DNA of 17,360 bases from a virus (lineage: Duplodnaviria; Heunggongvirae; Uroviricota; Caudoviricetes). Below the pieces are notes generated by a model. The model ran no database searches and was not told where the DNA came from. It was given only the letters and a program-made list of their open reading frames with translations. Numbering within the stretch: the first letter of the stretch is position 1; every line of letters starts with the position of its first letter. Both the position numbers and the translations under genes were made by a program. Shown one piece after another: positions 1 through 13,771 of this stretch. The DNA lies in IMG/VR virus record IMGVR_UViG_2645728010_000005. One strand, 5' to 3'.

Positions 1-273
1 ATGTCAACCGGATTACGTTTCACACTGGAAGTGGACGGCCTGCCGCCGGATGCTTTTGCGGTGGTTTCCTTTCATCTGAACCAGTCACTCTCTTCGCTCT
101 TTTCCCTCGATCTCTCCCTGGTCAGCCAGCAGTTTCTCTCCCTTGAATTTGCGCAGGTGCTGGACAAAATGGCCTACCTGACGATATGGCAGGGCGATGA
201 AGTACAGCGCCGGGTGAAAGGCGTGGTGACCTGGTTTGAACTCGGGGAGAACGACAAAAACCAGATGCTGTAG
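1..273 (+). pseudogene. 5' fragment (~90 codons) of a VgrG-like gene (T6SS spike / Rhs-associated Vgr family)
   Basis: ORF 1..273 translates MSTGLRFTLEVDGLPPDAFAVVSFHLNQSLSS..., which I recognise as the conserved N-terminus of enterobacterial VgrG proteins (normally >600 aa). The frame stops at TAG 271..273, where tail-fibre homology on the opposite strand ends. Confidence 0.45.
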
Positions 274-718
274 CTGCATTCGTTTCTGAGGTTTTCGCCG
301 CGTTCTTCGATGATGCCGCTGCAGTTTCGGATTTCTTTGCCGCCGCTGCGCTCTGAGAGGCGGCTTCGGCGTTGCGTGCCGCTTCTTCCACCATTGCCTC
401 AAAACGACGCAATGCCTCCGGCATGACATCATCTTCCGTCATGGCACCGAGAAAATCATTCAGCGTACCTGGTCTGGAACCTTCATAGACGGTAATGGTT
501 CCGGCATGTGAAGGCGGAAAACCTTCAACCAGCAGGGTGACGCTGTACTGGCCATGCTCAACATCCATGCTGTAACGCCCGGCTTCATCCGGATTTTCAG
601 AGGCCACCGTGTTCACCAGTACCGTGGTGCTGTTACGCTTTGCCTTCAGTTGAATAGTGCAGTTCTGTATTGGTTTTCCCGCACCATCTTTCAGCACACC
701 TGAAATCTGTACTGCCAT
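122..718 (-). pseudogene. stf: Side tail fibre Stf, N-terminal fragment only (~155 codons of Stf-like sequence, 718 down to ~274, then out-of-frame read-through to the stop at 122)
   Basis: ATG at 718..716 with SD GGAGTG upstream. Translation MAVQISGVLKDGAGKPIQNCTIQLKAKRNSTTVLVNTVASENPDEAGRYSMDV... matches the lambda Stf N-terminus as I recall it. Full-length Stf is several hundred aa longer and no tfa follows. Confidence 0.6.
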
Positions 719-733
719 ATTCACTCCACAAAT

Positions 734-758
734 AAAAAAGGCGCCATTTCTGGCGCCC
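734..758 (-). terminator. Intrinsic terminator between J and stf (tJ-like)
   Basis: Hairpin GGCGCC-atttct-GGCGCC (740..757), followed on the minus strand by a T-run (complement of aaaaaa at 734..739). Confidence 0.5.
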
Positions 759-776
759 GTATCTGGGTTATAAAAT

Positions 777-2752
777 TCAGCTAATCATGATGCCTGCAGT
801 GGCTTTCTTCATCACCACAACCAGCAAATCGCTGATACTTGCTGTGGGATACCAGCCATTTACCAGCCATGCCGATACAGAAAATTCCAGTGTCATTACA
901 CCACTGCCTGCAGGCATATCAATAACACCCGTATATATCAGCGTATTATCCAGAGCCGTTCGGTTATAAATTTCAGCACCGTTTTTTCGTACTATCAGAC
1001 GGCATGAGGAGTAGATATCAGTATGATCTTGCTCATGTTTAGCGCCACTGAATGCCACCGCCGGAATAACAATTTGCCGGTCAAACGGCTGATCGTCATA
1101 AACCCTGACGGTAATGGTCCCTGATGGCCACCGCTCCGGTGCACGGGAGTCCCGGGGGAAAGCTTTGCCCACTGTTTTAACGAGATCGCCTTCAATCTGG
1201 TTCGCGGACAGTTTTCCCAGAACCCGGCAGTTCTCGTTAATCGTGACGTTGTTGAGCGTCCCGGAGTTCGCATTCACGTTACCGCTAATATCGGCATTTT
1301 TCGCCGTCAGCCGCCCGTCCGGTGTCAGGGAAAATGCCGGAGGATTACCGCCGCTGGTAATGGTGGGAGCCGTCAGATATTTCAGGAACACTTCGTTCAT
1401 GAATATCTGATCGCCCTGACCAACAAACATCGGCTTTGTGTTGCCATTCGCAGGATTAATCATCGCAATCCTGTCCGCCGCCAGCAGCACCTGACTCTGC
1501 ATACCGTCAGGGGTATTCTCAATACCGGCACCAATACCCGCGATATAAAGGCGTCCGTCCTGCATCTGCTGCAGCTTCACAGCCCACATGCTGTTCAGGT
1601 TATTATTTGTATCAACCTGAACCTTCTGTATCTGCTGGATTGCCGCACTCTGGTCTTCCAGTTTCTTATTGACGGTCTGCGTGATTTCATTACTGACATC
1701 CGTGATGGACGTTCTGATTTCCGCCAGGTCAGGCGCAAGCTGACCGTTATCAATCTGCGTCCACAACTCCTGAGCCAGATGGGTTTTCCCTATCTCTCCT
1801 TTGAAAAAATTCAGATAGCCGGATGCATCATCACTCGGCTGGCCAACAGCCTCCACGAATGCCGATTTGCCAACGGTGTTCACACTGCGGATGTAAAAAT
1901 AATAATCATGGCCCGGTTTGATATTGATACTGGCGGCTATCCAGTACAGCGCCGTGCCAAGATAGCGTGCTGTGGTTTCAACCTGCCTGATATCCGCAAT
2001 CCGCTTTTCCGAGAACCAGAACTCAAACTGTACCGTCGGATCATAAACCGCAAGATGCGGCGTGGCGGTTATCTGAAAATACCCCGGTGTCAGCTCAATC
2101 TGCGACGGCGCTGCCGGTGCGGCAATCCGGAACGATACCGACGCCGGCTCGCCCTGCTGCCCCCACGCATTTACTGCCCGGACTGTCAGCCTGTAGTTCC
2201 CCAGAGCCAGTTGTGTGAAGCGGTAAGTGGTTTCCGTCGTCCGGGCCGTGCTGACCAGTCGCTCACGGCCGTCATCCGCTGCCACGGTCAGGCGAAGCAG
2301 GAAGCTCACGCCCTTCACCACCTTCGGCGTATCCCAGCGGGCCAGCACCTGGTATTCCCCGCTGTCTGCGGTGACTTCTGCGGTCAGGTGCTGCACCGCT
2401 GGCGGCGTGACACCATTTACCGTGCCGCTCTGGTCGCCGTCAAAGTGCGCCCCGTTATCCACGATGGCCTCTTTTTCCGGTACATGCTGCACGGCGGTGA
2501 TGGCATACGTGCCGTCGTCGTTCTCACGGATACTCACGCAGCGGAACAGGCGCTGGCGCAACGTCGGCAGCTTCAGCCCCCATATGCCGGCTTAAACGTT
2601 CCGTCCCAGATACCGCTGTATTGCCGCGTCTGCGGGTTATAGTTCGACGGCACCTGCAGAATGCGCCCGCGAAGATGATAATTACGGCTCACCTGCTGGC
2701 TGCCGAACTGCTCCGAGTCCACCTGCACGCCGACCAGTGCCGTGTTCGGGTA
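777..2752 (-). pseudogene. J: Tail tip / host-specificity protein J remnant: C-terminal ~600 codons (777..~2582, track ORF starts at a TTG) plus a ~55-codon internal J segment in a different frame (~2582..2752)
   Basis: Minus-strand ORF 777..2561 (594 aa) contains [45 protein letters not shown]... and downstream blocks typical of lambda J (fibronectin-like region, [20 protein letters not shown]). A second minus-strand frame over 2583..2752 reads [57 protein letters not shown], which matches a more N-terminal part of J. Lambda J is ~1130 aa. Confidence 0.7.
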
Positions 2753-3257
2753 TCAGTTCATCCAGCGCGGCTGCTTTGTTCATGGCTTTGATGATATCCC
2801 GTTTCAGGAAATCAACATGTCGGTTTTCCAGTTCCGGAAAACGCCGCTGCACCGACAGGGGGATCCCGTCGAGAATACTGGCAATTTCACCTGCGATCCG
2901 CGACAGCACGAAAGTACAGAATGCGGTTTCCACCACTTCAGCGGAGTCTCTGGCATTTTTCAGCTCCTGTGCGTCGGCCTGCGCACGCGTAAGTCGATGG
3001 CGTTCGTACTCAATAGTCCCTGGCTGGAGATCTGTCTCGCTGGCCTGCCGCAGTTCTTCAACTTCCCGGCGCAGCTTTTCGTTCTCAATTTCAGCATCCC
3101 TTTCGGCATACCATCTTATAACGGCGGCAGAGTCATAAAGCACCTCATTACCCTTGCCACCGCCTCGCAGAACGGGCATTCCCTGTTCCTGCCAGTTCTG
3201 AATGGTACGGATACTCGCACCGAAAATGTCAGCCAGCTGCTTTTTGTTGACTTCCAT
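2682..3257 (-). CDS. nohD: Terminase small subunit Nu1 homolog, Nu1-like for ~170 codons then 21 unrelated codons (J-derived sequence read out of frame)
   Basis: ATG at 3257. Translation MEVNKKQLADIFGASIRTIQNWQEQGMPVLRGGGKGNEVLYDSAAV... is near-identical to lambda Nu1 up to ...AALDELIP, then diverges (EHGTGRRAGGLGAVRQPAGEP). Confidence 0.8.
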   Translation of the reverse strand: MEVNKKQLADIFGASIRTIQNWQEQGMPVLRGGGKGNEVLYDSAAVIRWYAERDAEIENEKLRREVEELRQASETDLQPGTIEYERHRLTRAQADAQELKNARDSAEVVETAFCTFVLSRIAGEIASILDGIPLSVQRRFPELENRHVDFLKRDIIKAMNKAAALDELIPEHGTGRRAGGLGAVRQPAGEP

Positions 3258-3460
3258 TGTTCATTCCACGGCCAAAAACAGAGAAAGGAAACGACAGAGG
3301 CCCAAAAGCTCGTTTTCAGCACCTGTCGTTTCCTTTCTTTTCAGGGGGTATTTTAAATAAAAACATTAAGTTACGACGAAGAAGAACGGAAATGCCTTAA
3401 ACCGGAAAATTTTCATAAATAGCGAAAACCCGCGAGGTCGCCGCCCCGTAACCTGTCGGA
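3258..3460 (-). other. cos site: cosN cohesive-end sequence GGGCGGCGACCT (complement of 3435..3446), with the cosB region between it and the Nu1 start
   Basis: The reverse complement of 3258..3446 reads GGGCGGCGACCTCGCGGGTTTTCGCTATTTATGAAAATTTTCCGG... and continues into the Nu1 ATG, as at the lambda left end. The sequence to the right of 3446 reads like the lambda right end. Confidence 0.75.
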
Positions 3461-3645
3461 TCGCCGGAAAGGACCCGCAAAATGATAATAATTATCATCT
3501 ACATGTCACAACGTGCATCTACGCCATCAAACCACGTCAAATAATCAATTATGACGCAGGTATCGTATTAATTGATCTGCATCAACTTAACGTAAAAACA
3601 ACTTCAGACAATACAAATCAGCGACACTGAATACGGGGCAACCTC

Positions 3646-3840
3646 ATGTCAACTAAGAACAGAACCCGCAGAACAACAACCCGCAACATCCGCTTTCCTA
3701 ACCAAATGATTGAACAAATTAACATCGCTCTTGAGCAAAAAGGGTCTGGGAATTTCTCAGCCTGGGTCATTGAAGCCTGCCGTCGGAGACTAACGTCAGA
3801 AAAGAGAGCATATACATCAATCCAGAGTGATGATGAATAA
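3646..3840 (+). CDS. Small conserved lambdoid right-end protein (64 aa), possibly DUF3950 / ribbon-helix-helix-like
   Basis: ATG 3646, 64 codons, MSTKNRTRRTTTRNIRFPNQMIEQINIALEQKGSGNFSAWVIEACRRRL... I recall an almost identical small orf between bor and cos in lambda-like phages; its function is unknown to me. Confidence 0.5.
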   Translation: MSTKNRTRRTTTRNIRFPNQMIEQINIALEQKGSGNFSAWVIEACRRRLTSEKRAYTSIQSDDE

Positions 3841-3937
3841 ACATCCCGGTTTCTTCCACCATCGCACCGGAAAAGCGACTATGAGGGTAACCCTGCGTCT
3901 GTCAGCACAGTAAAACCCGGTGTGCATCGTTTTTGAT

Positions 3938-4002
3938 TATTCCCGCACACTCACGCAGAAGGAATTCCCCGTCGGGCTACGGTCATGGTTAATGCGGGAA
4001 TA
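3938..4002. repeat. 10-bp perfect inverted repeat TATTCCCGCA (3938..3947) / TGCGGGAATA (3993..4002) with a 45-bp spacer, upstream of bor
   Basis: Read directly from the sequence; lies in the non-coding stretch 3841..4200. Confidence 0.6.
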
Positions 4003-6048: not shown

Positions 6049-6918
6049 TATAGAACCCCCATAAATAACAGCCATTAATATAAATTAGCTAATAGGTTTA
6101 TTTTTGTTCAAATAAGAGCCATAAATAGGTTTCGATAGAAAAAGTTCAGATAAAAATAGAGATCTACTTCACAAATTAAATGAGAAACTAAAACTTACAT
6201 CTTGAAATAATCACATTGATTAGATGAATATTTATCGCGCAGTGACATCATTTTTTAATAATAGTTCAAAAAAAAGGGCTCACGATGAAAAAATTAACAG
6301 TGGCAATTTCTGCTGTAGCTGCATCAGTACTGATGGCGATGTCTGCTCAGGCAGCTGAAATTTATAATAAAGACAGTAACAAGCTGGATCTGTACGGGAA
6401 AGTTAATGCCAAGCACTACTTTTCCTCTAACGATGCAGATGATGGTGATACTACTTATGCCCGTCTTGGCTTCAAAGGTGAAACCCAAATCAACGATCAA
6501 CTGACTGGTTTCGGTCAGTGGGAATATGAATTCAAAGGCAACCGCGCTGAATCTCAAGGTTCCTCCAAAGACAAAACCCGTCTTGCATTTGCAGGCCTGA
6601 AATTCGGTGACTACGGCTCAATCGATTACGGCCGTAACTACGGTGTAGCATACGACATCGGTGCGTGGACTGACGTTCTGCCAGAATTCGGTGGCGATAC
6701 CTGGACCCAAACAGATGTGTTCATGACTGGTCGCACCACTGGTGTTGCAACCTATCGTAACAACGACTTCTTTGGTCTGGTCGATGGCCTGAACTTTGCT
6801 GCTCAGTATCAGGGTAAAAATGACCGCACTGACGTAACTGAAGCCAATGGTGATGGTTTCGGTGGTGATGCTGCCAACTTACTGATTTAGTGTATGATGG
6901 TGTTTTTGAGGTGCTCCA

Positions 6919-7194
6919 GTGGCTTCTGTTTCTATCAGCTGTCCCTCCTGTTCAGCTACTGACGGGGTGGTGCGTAACGGCAAAAGCACCGCCGGACATC
7001 AGCGCTATCTCTGCTCTCACTGCCGTAAAACATGGCAACTGCAGTTCACTTACACCGCTTCTCAACCCGGTACGCACCAGAAAATCATTGATATGGCCAT
7101 GAATGGCGTTGGATGCCGGGCAACTGCCCGCATTATGGGCGTTGGCCTCAACACGATTTTACGTCACTTAAAAAACTCAGGCCGCAGTCGGTAA
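6919..7194 (+). CDS. insA: IS1 InsA (transposition inhibitor / N-terminal part of the transposase)
   Basis: 91 aa [43 protein letters not shown]... with a zinc-finger CxxC...CxxC; canonical InsA. Confidence 0.9.
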
Positions 7195-7616
7195 CCTCGC
7201 GCATACAGCCGGGCAGTGACGTCATCGTCTGCGCGGAAATGGACGAACAGTGGGGCTATGTCGGGGCTAAATCGCGCCAGCGCTGGCTGTTTTACGCGTA
7301 TGACAGGCTCCGGAAGACGGTTGTTGCGCACGTATTCGGTGAACGCACTATGGCGACGCTGGGGCGTCTTATGAGCCTGCTGTCACCCTTTGACGTGGTG
7401 ATATGGATGACGGATGGCTGGCCGCTGTATGAATCCCGCCTGAAGGGAAAGCTGCACGTAATCAGCAAGCGATATACGCAGCGAATTGAGCGGCATAACC
7501 TGAATCTGAGGCAGCACCTGGCACGGCTGGGACGGAAGTCGCTGTCGTTCTCAAAATCGGTGGAGCTGCATGACAAAGTCATCGGGCATTATCTGAACAT
7601 AAAACACTATCAATAA
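7113..7616 (+). CDS. insB: IS1 InsB reading frame (expressed as the InsAB' transposase by -1 frameshift)
   Basis: 167 aa ...[28 protein letters not shown]...; canonical InsB, overlapping insA in the -1 frame. Confidence 0.85.
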
Positions 7617-8153
7617 GTTGGAGTCATTACCGGTTTCGGTTTCTCCACTACTTATGAGTATGAAGGATTCGGCGTGGGTGCAACCTATGCTAAATCAGAT
7701 CGCACTGACGGTCAGGTCGCCTATGGTAAGAGCAAATTCAATGCCTCCGGCAAAAATGCGGAAGTATGGGCTGCAGGCCTGAAATATGATGCGAACAATA
7801 TCTATCTGGCTACCACATATTCTGAAACTCAGAATATGACCGTTTTTGGTAATAACCATATTGCAAACAAAGCACAAAACTTTGAAGCAGTAGCACAATA
7901 TCAGTTTGACTTCGGTCTGCGACCATCTGTTGCTTACCTTCAGTCAAAAGGTAAAGACCTTGGTGTTCATGGTGACCGAGACTTAGTCAAGTATGTCGAT
8001 GTCGGTGCTACTTACTACTTTAATAAAAACATGTCCACTTTTGTTGATTACAAAATCAACTTAATTGACGATAGTAAGTTTACCAAAACAGCTGGTATTG
8101 ATACCGACGACATCGTCGCTGTAGGTCTGGTGTATCAGTTCTAATCTGATTAC

Positions 8154-12244: not shown

Positions 12245-13771
12245 TTAGAAATAAATCTCACCATCAACCATATATTTGAGAGCACTTATCGCCTGCTGGG
12301 CGGATATTACTTTCATTAAAGGATAGTGTTTAAAAACAATGCCATTCATAAAATAGATATCACAGGTTTTATTATCCGTATTAATTATGATTTTTTCGAA
12401 TGTTTTATAGGCAAGTGTACGGCATAACTCTCGTCCATTTTTACTGGTTAAGTCAATAGCATAAAAATCACTGAATGAATTTACACCTTTACTCTTCAAA
12501 GTTTTCAATGATACCGAAGCCCTTCGTAATTCCTTATCTAATAGTCTTATTTTCTCTGCTATAGCGGTAACTTCAGGCGCGACAGACAATGCAACGATTA
12601 AATTATTAATTTTCATCTGAAGCTCAATAATTTTTAACTCTAAAGTTTCATTAGCATCTTTCTTGTTTTCAACTGGTTGAATTTTGCTACAATTAAAAAG
12701 CAATTCATTAATGATATTATAATCAACCAAATCTCTTTTTATTGATGGCCTGTCACATCGATGTAATCTTCTCATCGGACAAACATAATAGCCATGCAAA
12801 CTTCCAGATACCGCATGAACAATCATGGTATTACCACAAGCCTCACACTTCATAACTGTTCGAAGTAGATTTATTAGCATAGGATTCTTGCTACTATTGC
12901 TAATACCAAAAGGTGCCAACCGAATTTCCTGTACAGCGTAAAACAAATCATCTGATATGACTCTGGGATAATAGCCAGCGATTTCACTTATCCCTTTCCC
13001 TCTTGCACGATATGAAGGTACGCATATACCTATCAGAGCTTTATTCGCTAATAATTTTTCAATTACAGAAGGTCCCCATGCACTTTCTTTTCCTGAGAAA
13101 TTCTTTACAGCATGATCATTTAAATACTTGGCTATTGCATTCAATGAGCGCCTTTCCATCCTGAGTTTAAAAATTAGCTCAATAGTTTTCACCCTGTCGG
13201 GGTCTGGAACAAAAGCCGTTCTTTTGTCATCTAAGGAGAGCCATCTCGGACAAGACGCCGTCATAATCGTACCTGATTCCAGTGCATCCTGCCGTTTTTT
13301 CTTCCATGATAATTTAACCCGACTTGACTTTATCTCGCTTTCTTCATTTGCCCTTTGTGCTATAAGTATGGCTTTTATTAATGAATATGGCTCATTCAAA
13401 GAGTCAATATTATAGACTGTATTGTCGCAAAGAGTTATAACATCAATACCGTGATTCAAAATCAATTTCAGACGTTCAATCGCTTCACCGACTTTTTCTC
13501 TTGAAAGTCTGTCCAGACTTTCAACTAACAATGTAGTTCCTGGCAATATATAACCATGCTCTATAGCATCTAAAAATTCCGAAAAAGCTCCTGATTGTGC
13601 ATGCTTTCCTTTGAATGCACTTAATCCTAAATCTTCATATGTTATGGTATCAAGATAATAATCACTATTTACCTTTAACCATTCAGCAATAAGTCTTCTC
13701 TGTCGGTTTAATGAGTCGCCAGACATCTGACCTGGTGATGAAAATCGCATATATGCTATGGCTTTTTTCAT
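12245..13771 (-). CDS. ybcK: Large serine recombinase (resolvase-like catalytic domain, recombinase domain, Cys-rich zinc-ribbon region)
   Basis: 508 aa; N-terminus MKKAIAYMRFSSPGQ carries the catalytic-serine motif of serine recombinases; Cys cluster CEACGNTMIVH...YYVCPMRRLHRCDRP; coiled-coil-like C-terminal region. Confidence 0.85.
   Translation of the reverse strand: MKKAIAYMRFSSPGQMSGDSLNRQRRLIAEWLKVNSDYYLDTITYEDLGLSAFKGKHAQSGAFSEFLDAIEHGYILPGTTLLVESLDRLSREKVGEAIERLKLILNHGIDVITLCDNTVYNIDSLNEPYSLIKAILIAQRANEESEIKSSRVKLSWKKKRQDALESGTIMTASCPRWLSLDDKRTAFVPDPDRVKTIELIFKLRMERRSLNAIAKYLNDHAVKNFSGKESAWGPSVIEKLLANKALIGICVPSYRARGKGISEIAGYYPRVISDDLFYAVQEIRLAPFGISNSSKNPMLINLLRTVMKCEACGNTMIVHAVSGSLHGYYVCPMRRLHRCDRPSIKRDLVDYNIINELLFNCSKIQPVENKKDANETLELKIIELQMKINNLIVALSVAPEVTAIAEKIRLLDKELRRASVSLKTLKSKGVNSFSDFYAIDLTSKNGRELCRTLAYKTFEKIIINTDNKTCDIYFMNGIVFKHYPLMKVISAQQAISALKYMVDGEIYF

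Follow-up and report, generated by a model that had tools for sequence, protein, structure and literature searches.

A decayed J pseudogene in the DLP12 prophage of E. coli B that carries a common, non-lambda receptor-binding domain

The question raised by this locus is whether a lambda-like J gene, whose receptor-binding end looks unlike that of lambda, preserves an alternative receptor specificity, and what such a gene could still contribute. The locus lies in a 17,360-nucleotide stretch of DNA (the window), of which positions 1-4000 are 100% identical to the chromosomes of BL21(DE3), BL21, C41/C43 and the NEB B-derived expression strains. From high to low coordinate the order is intD, emrE, ybcL/M, rusA, quuD, nmpC::IS1, essD-rrrD-rzpD, iss/bor, ylcI, the terminase small subunit, a 'phage tail tip protein' pseudogene and a tail-fibre fragment. 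Based on this gene order the locus is the DLP12 cryptic prophage of the E. coli B/BL21 lineage. The J remnant itself is annotated in BL21(DE3) by RefSeq as pseudogene ECD_RS02675, on the minus strand, with the product 'phage tail tip protein, missing N-terminus'. The features around it are the following.

355..724, minus strand: N-terminal fragment of stf (side tail fibre), directly downstream of J (PF08400 phage_tail_N, E 2e-68)
739..758, minus strand: terminator-like hairpin and T-run directly 3' of the J stop (8-pair stem with 6 G-C pairs, then TTTTTATTTG)
777-779, minus strand: J stop codon (ORF call)
777..2561, minus strand: mechanical ORF of 594 aa, with a Leu codon from within J (TTG) as its 'start' (ORF call)
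777..2585, minus strand: J pseudogene (tail tip / central fibre), its 3' block, equal to lambda J aa 558-end (ORF, BLASTP and annotation)
2582..2752, minus strand: out-of-frame J fragment, aa 212-268 (tblastn, 57/57 identical to lambda J)
2682..3257, minus strand: terminase small subunit (Nu1), its 3' end running into the J fragment (PF07471, profile positions 1-164 of 164, E 3e-101)

The remnant thus reads Nu1, J 212-268 and J 558-end, and BLASTP aligns the 594-aa ORF to lambda J 566-1132 (NC_001416 15505-18903). The terminase large subunit, the head genes and the tail genes V through I have been deleted between Nu1 and J aa 211; no tail genes were found anywhere in the window, and Nu1 lies directly upstream of J, where lambda has V, G, T, H, M, L, K and I. 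J aa 1-211 and 269-557 are missing from the window, and the frame shifts at an 871-bp deletion within J, which has 'TA' microhomology at its junction near 2583-2585. Comparison of the breakpoints with REL606, which does not have this deletion, identifies it as an extra loss specific to the window's (BL21) lineage. In a global DNA alignment the sequence upstream of window 2590 had looked like diverged J; tblastn ruled this out and showed J aa 212-268 there, read in a different frame. Over 367 nt the stf fragment is 83.7% identical to lambda stf at the nucleotide level, and it is annotated as a pseudogene missing its C-terminus; no lom gene was found between it and the J remnant. A full gpJ has about 1130-1160 aa in one frame with an N-terminal hub, and the remnant has neither. 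The J remnant is a pseudogene that is unable to build a tail tip or contribute to a virion, because the hub domains and the other tail genes are deleted and the frame is shifted. The only plausible role left to it is that of a recombination donor.

The identity of the ORF to lambda J was computed using BLASTP and MAFFT and changes in steps along the protein.

ORF aa 1-240: 96.7% identity to lambda J
ORF aa 241-335: 31.6% identity, with 28 residues that have no counterpart in lambda
ORF aa 336-463: 71.9% identity, rising up to 93% in aa 391-420
ORF aa 464-594: 39.7% identity

The 594-aa ORF has exactly the C-terminal residues that the initial annotation quoted. The initial annotation had described the remnant as lambda-like through its centre and unlike lambda J in its last ~250 residues. 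The first 240 residues bear out the former, and the latter holds as well, with 55.2% identity over the last 250 aa and none of the high identity that had been named beforehand as the finding that would speak against it. The boundary of the divergence has to be redrawn. The interval 777-1600 (aa 321-594), where it had been placed, does diverge (55.5% identity), but the onset is earlier, at about window 1841 or 355 residues before the end, and the interval contains a conserved block with 73-93% identity per 30-aa bin. The divergence is therefore a mosaic of two blocks with a conserved beta-prism between them, and the part of it that is receptor-specific is limited to approximately 780-1210.

The Pfam domains of the ORF (Ig_J, Ig_J_second, Phage_Tail_Tip and Ig_GpJ_C) are found in the order expected of J.

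1803..2429, minus strand: two FNIII / Ig_J domains (Ig_J aa 45-149, PF24421, E 1e-41; Ig_J_second aa 151-253, PF24489, E 1e-39)
1557..1841, minus strand: divergent alpha-helical-shaft segment, aa 241-335, with 28 residues absent from lambda J (BLASTP, MAFFT)
1257..1643, minus strand: beta-prism 'central straight fibre', Phage_Tail_Tip, aa 307-435 (PF09327, E 4e-32)
780..1172, minus strand: receptor-binding Ig-like domain (RBD), aa 464-594, a non-lambda allele (PF12421 Ig_GpJ_C, E 6e-37)

The structure of the lambda tail divides this region into FNIII-1, FNIII-2, a shaft of alpha helices with a beta-prism, and an RBD with four receptor-contacting bottom loops (PMC11101478). Mapping the domains onto this nomenclature identifies the two divergent blocks as the shaft, in a long version common to phi330 and PhiR46_1, and the RBD. 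The latter is complete, since its Ig_GpJ_C match spans profile positions 1-135 of 135. Among the solved chains the last 300 aa best match 9wca (A8 gpJ, E 7e-117), with lambda gpJ 8xcj at E 1e-95, and the fold can be taken as settled because identity to solved structures is 40-65% over the whole 294 aa. For the last 150 aa, single-sequence AlphaFold2 prediction yielded a poor, all-beta model with 7 strands and a pLDDT of 49. Foldseek ranked 9wca, 9wcb, 8xck and 8xcj first with this model. As the model is poor and the ranking is largely a sequence signal, we left it out of any consideration of loop geometry. The ranking agrees with the sequence comparison and does not count as separate evidence. 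In an alignment of nine tips the variation gathers in four segments, and the lambda host-range codons (aa 1000, 1012, 1077, 1104, 1107 and 1122), at which Borin et al. list host-range mutations of lambda J (bioRxiv 10.1101/2020.11.02.365361), fall in or beside these segments. The remnant has different residues at all of these positions.

Where this tip belongs becomes apparent when it is compared to other phages. The ORF is identical to PhiR46_1 J aa 566-1159 at 583 of 594 residues (98%) with no gaps, thus this RBD allele works in a viable, plaque-forming phage. The host of PhiR46_1 is E. coli ECOR13 according to its sequence record. At the DNA level the RBD shares 94-98% identity with VT1-Sakai (Sp15), with the PPompW prophages and with many Stx1a/Stx2a phages, with values of 97.6% and 94.7% in the comparison with PhiR46_1 and the VT1-Sakai group. 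Compared over the last 170 aa, the tips fall into four clades. The first, which we label type I, contains the window, PhiR46_1, VT1-Sakai and PhiR49_2 at 86-98% identity among themselves; the window tip belongs here with 98% identity to PhiR46_1, 96% to VT1-Sakai and 87% to PhiR49_2, all free of indels. Type II (A8, phi330, mEp460_4F5 and Stx1a_NIID132265) has 76-87% identity within the clade and 64-71% to type I. The 434 clade is 42-49% and the lambda clade 42-52% identical to all other clades, and type I is 46% identical to each of the two. That receptor-binding domains of J are swapped between phages, as the initial annotation held, is supported by these four RBD clades, 42-71% identical to each other, sitting on nearly identical N-terminal parts.

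The same annotation had implied that the tip is unusual, and this proved to be wrong. We surveyed 5426 complete E. coli genomes, counting matches that cover at least 80% of the query. The RBD type of this remnant (453-nt query) was found in 3350 genomes (62%), mostly at 90-95% identity and in a median of 2 copies each, and the A8/phi330 type in 2417. The lambda type was found in 96 genomes at this coverage and in 98 with any match, all at least 99% identical, and the lambda-type genomes listed are laboratory strains with lambda or DE3. Lambda's tip is the outlier, and the J tip of the remnant is the allele in the majority in E. coli, the commonest type rather than an exotic one.

Which receptor such a tip would recognize is a separate matter. 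A complete non-lambda RBD has been kept, so the suggestion that an alternative specificity is preserved stands to that extent, while the receptor itself is something that we infer. The candidate that we lean towards, by a modest preference that draws on sequence relationships, is OmpC. It is favored by parsimony because the sister clade (A8 gpJ and phi330) and the more distant 434 J bind OmpC. A chimera with the A8 tip delivers DNA to lamB ompC deletion cells only with ompC supplied (Brodel et al. 2024, PMC11338833), which is one of three independent lines that place type II on OmpC. The second is the title of PDB entry 9wcb, 'Open state of A8 gpJ 713 central tail fiber with OmpC G17 from E. 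coli EDL933'; no paper describing 9wca/9wcb was found. As the third, phage phi330, whose RBD is A8-type by sequence comparison, loses the Keio ompC knockout as a host and regains it on complementation (PMC12502783). 434 J also uses OmpC (Fuerst and Bingham 1978, as cited in PMC11101478 and PMC12502783). A literature search found no receptor experiment on the exact type I RBD and no receptor data for PhiR46_1, although it missed the source paper of that phage. The BASEL papers and a 2026 receptor-prediction preprint were considered as receptor sources and set aside, as they concern the GpJ of Drexlerviridae and not lambda-type tips.

The comparison with J tips of known receptor, which had been proposed as a check, gives a divided answer: the nearest are the OmpC binders A8/phi330 at about 65% identity, but the hairpin predicted to insert into the barrel differs. 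In an AlphaFold3 model of phi330 the hairpin E953-S962 (ENFNSNNQQS) lies inside the OmpC barrel (PMC12502783). In the remnant this hairpin is replaced by EQDHTD, an unrelated sequence that is 5-6 residues shorter, and both the first variable loop and the barrel hairpin have the lengths of lambda rather than those of A8. A second contact hairpin is partly conserved (ANNWTP versus VNGWYP). Membership in the A8/phi330 allele group would go with close identity and the long hairpin, and we find 64-68% identity and the shorter one. An identity of about 65% does not fix the receptor, because lambda switches porin through a few RBD substitutions (Borin et al., bioRxiv 10.1101/2020.11.02.365361). The replaced hairpin, the two loops of lambda length and the ease of this switch are the reasons why we hold the OmpC assignment loosely.

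The same observations leave a minority chance, perhaps the most serious one, that the RBD recognizes neither K-12-type OmpC nor LamB, and that it would instead bind OmpF or another porin, or only certain non-K-12 OmpC alleles. The main predicted barrel hairpin is unrelated to that of A8/phi330, as this reading would have it, and there is a precedent for allele specificity in the Eligo chimera 1A2, which uses EDL933 OmpC and not MG1655 OmpC (PMC11338833). The receptor also tracks RBD phylogeny loosely, given that two OmpC-using clades are only about 48% identical. However, parsimony on the RBD tree still points to OmpC, none of the lambda-type J RBD family members considered here has a documented non-porin receptor, and the presence of the tip in 62% of E. 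coli genomes implies that its receptor is nearly universal. Chimera 1A2, the second one from Eligo and specific for EDL933 OmpC, could be of the remnant's tip type; its sequence was not found as text in the supplements of the Nature paper, in the 2022 preprint or in the 2025 STEC preprint.

A diverged allele that still recognizes LamB is a less probable alternative to OmpC. The match in length to lambda of the first loop (PRQRES--SVDWPSG in lambda) and of the hairpin after KHE/KRT speaks for it, as does the absence from the remnant of the 5-6-residue insertion carried by the OmpC-binding A8/phi330 clade. A LamB-binding allele should, however, have high identity to lambda J aa ~985-1132 and share the host-range residues, and the RBD is only 39.7% identical to that of lambda and differs from it at every host-range position listed by Borin et al. 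As a whole it is much nearer to the OmpC binders (64-71%), and the NxWxP hairpin, a predicted contact with the OmpC rim in phi330, is common to it and the A8 clade and not to lambda. Finally, the idea that the ORF yields a product of use to the host, for example as a secreted or surface RBD fragment that blocks the receptor against superinfection, can draw on a frame that is open for 594 codons in the window and 948 in REL606, but is highly implausible given a 'start' that is an internal Leu TTG with no promoter-like site upstream of the ORF at 777..2561, no signal peptide or export partner, an 871-bp frameshifting deletion tolerated by the BL21 lineage in the same gene, and the RefSeq pseudogene annotation. 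Against the reading as a decayed gene it can be said that the 948-codon frame of REL606 is long for a neutral relic, although a recent deletion would leave the same.

A role as recombination donor has a direct counterpart in published work. Borin et al. have described ECB_00512 of REL606 as a 'relict' J homologue that recombines with lambda (bioRxiv 10.1101/2020.11.02.365361). In lambda evolved on REL606, J nt 1545-2796 was replaced by ECB_00512 nt 882-2217, a tract of about 1.3 kb, which raised the growth rate of lambda on 3 of 3 hosts and doubled fitness on the malT- ompF- host, the hardest to infect (bioRxiv 10.1101/2020.11.02.365361). The offset of 663 nt places nt 1 of ECB_00512 near J aa 222, and the 84-nt difference in the length of the two tracts equals the 28-codon shaft insertion, numbers that fit the REL606 pseudogene. 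The end of the tract at lambda J nt 2796 corresponds to about window 1377, in the conserved prism, thus the tract carried the alternative shaft and not the RBD, and the conserved prism core is likely to be the right-hand crossover zone of the published recombinants. According to Borin et al. the tract has no overlap with the mutations in the RBD, from nt 2999 onward (bioRxiv 10.1101/2020.11.02.365361). Part of this tract (J aa 269-557) is gone from the window's lineage.

Transfer of the whole RBD to lambda is possible in principle, and would require the right-hand crossover to occur in the stf fragment, the only possible homology there, with loss of lom. Such a transfer was not reported in the literature. 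We consider it rather doubtful, yet worth stating, that the type I tip has a receptor or OmpC-allele spectrum yet to be described and that the relic is able to pass the entire RBD to an incoming lambda through crossovers in the 96%-identical FNIII part and the 84%-identical stf, with lom deleted. If this were true, host range could be switched in one step in the coevolution of lambda with E. coli B, a system in wide use.

Taking all of this together, the interval is very probably the 3' end of a decayed J pseudogene in DLP12, derived from a mosaic J with a common RBD allele and serving as a recombination reservoir. The ancestral J would have been an ordinary mosaic lambdoid J, with a hub and FNIII domains of the lambda kind, a longer alpha-helical shaft and an RBD of the family that dominates in E. 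coli (PhiR46_1, VT1-Sakai/Sp15, PPompW and many Stx phages). In the original phage a trimer of this RBD would have docked on a trimeric outer-membrane porin, with OmpC as the somewhat favored choice. Deletions then took out everything from Nu1 to J codon 211, and the BL21 lineage lost another 871 bp inside J, which shifted the frame. Today the remnant would be active solely as a silent store of J sequence on which recombination can draw.

The locus already has an annotation, recombination of the relic with lambda J is in the literature, and its tip allele is the one that most E. coli prophages of this kind carry. The survey nevertheless means that the LamB-binding lambda tip of the textbooks is a rarity (98 of 5426 genomes), and that a receptor assignment for the remnant's type, with its presence in 62% of genomes, would serve a very large number of prophages, including Stx phages. 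For the evolution of lambda on B strains it also means that a complete alternative RBD is present in the host, beside long stretches of near-identity to J.

Comparison with the known systems places the remnant among its relatives. The J of PhiR46_1 (PV340565, 1159 aa) has the same long shaft and the same RBD loops, but is full length in a complete tail operon with lom after J, whereas the copy in the window is a pseudogene with no lom. The REL606 copy ECB_00512 (now ECB_RS02685; NC_012967 551811-554657) occupies the same DLP12 locus and is a single open frame of 948 codons from J aa 212 to the stop, of which the last 594 aa are those of the window, the artefactual start residue aside; REL606 has a full-length stf and no 871-bp deletion, in contrast to the truncated stf and the deletion in the window. 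A8 gpJ (PDB 9wca, 9wcb) and phi330 J (PV189401) share domain order and fold with the remnant, with 64-68% identity over the last 170 aa and the C-terminal strand and N-x-W-x-P hairpin in common, but their hairpin ENFNSNNQQSYW becomes the shorter EQDHTD-I in the remnant, while the first loop, RTSTYA in these tips, is longer in the remnant. The LamB-binding lambda J (P03749; PDB 8xcj, 8xck) has the same Pfam domains, an FNIII part 96.7% identical to that of the remnant and, for two of the four variable segments, loops of equal length, but its RBD is 39.7% identical and its shaft is 28 residues shorter. The J of phage 434 (OL657226) is of the same family and architecture, with 46% identity over the last 170 aa and insertions that differ in every variable loop, and 434 has an annotated terminator after J at the place equivalent to that of the terminator-like hairpin in the window.

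A survey of 5426 complete E. coli genomes finds the receptor-binding domain (RBD) type of the J remnant, the decayed tail tip pseudogene of this prophage, in 3350 of them and the A8/phi330 type, which binds OmpC, in 2417, both counted as matches covering at least 80% of the query. When any match is counted, DNA of the lambda LamB-type RBD occurs in 98/5426 genomes, every match being at 99% identity or above, and among the matches listed the carriers are laboratory strains.

The remnant itself has lost 871 bp internally, corresponding to J residues 269-557, with a 'TA' microhomology at the junction (window ~2582-2585). The window and BL21(DE3) share this deletion, which spans positions 982-1852 of the REL606 locus L005; REL606 itself lacks it, and its J copy is one uninterrupted open frame of 948 codons. 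In DE3 strains the remnant coexists with a complete lambda J, which belongs to the DE3 prophage (BL21(DE3) NC_012971 / C41(DE3), ~786-787 kb, against window 1841-2585); the same chromosome thus holds two copies of J with ~0.7 kb in common at ~96% identity.

Upstream of J lies the terminase small subunit:
2682-3257, minus strand, Nu1 ORF with the full Pfam Nu1 domain

Its final ~27 codons run into an out-of-frame fragment of J (residues 212-268), and this fusion marks the place where the genes for the terminase large subunit, the head and the tail were lost in a large deletion.

Elsewhere in the window, an nmpC-type porin gene (6285-8144) is interrupted by an IS1 element, and the N-terminus of a 508-aa ORF looks like a serine recombinase or resolvase:
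6919-7616, IS1 transposase ORFs inside the porin gene
12245-13771, minus strand, 508-aa ORF flanked by ybcL/ybcM and emrE

Downstream of J three features remain:
739-758, minus strand, terminator-like hairpin
355-724, minus strand, truncated N-terminal fragment of the side-tail-fibre gene (stf)
1-273, plus strand, 90-codon N-terminal fragment of VgrG/Phage_GPD

The last two point toward each other within window 1-724. In BL21(DE3) the next gene past them is cusS, and thus the K-12 stretch with ompT, envY and nfrAB is missing there. At this site stf is full-length in REL606, while in the window it is truncated. Only a 52-bp spacer (725-776), containing the hairpin, separates J from stf. The lom gene lies between them in lambda, 434, PhiR46_1, PhiR49_2 and VT1-Sakai but is absent here, as in mEp460_4F5, where a fibre gene likewise directly follows J.
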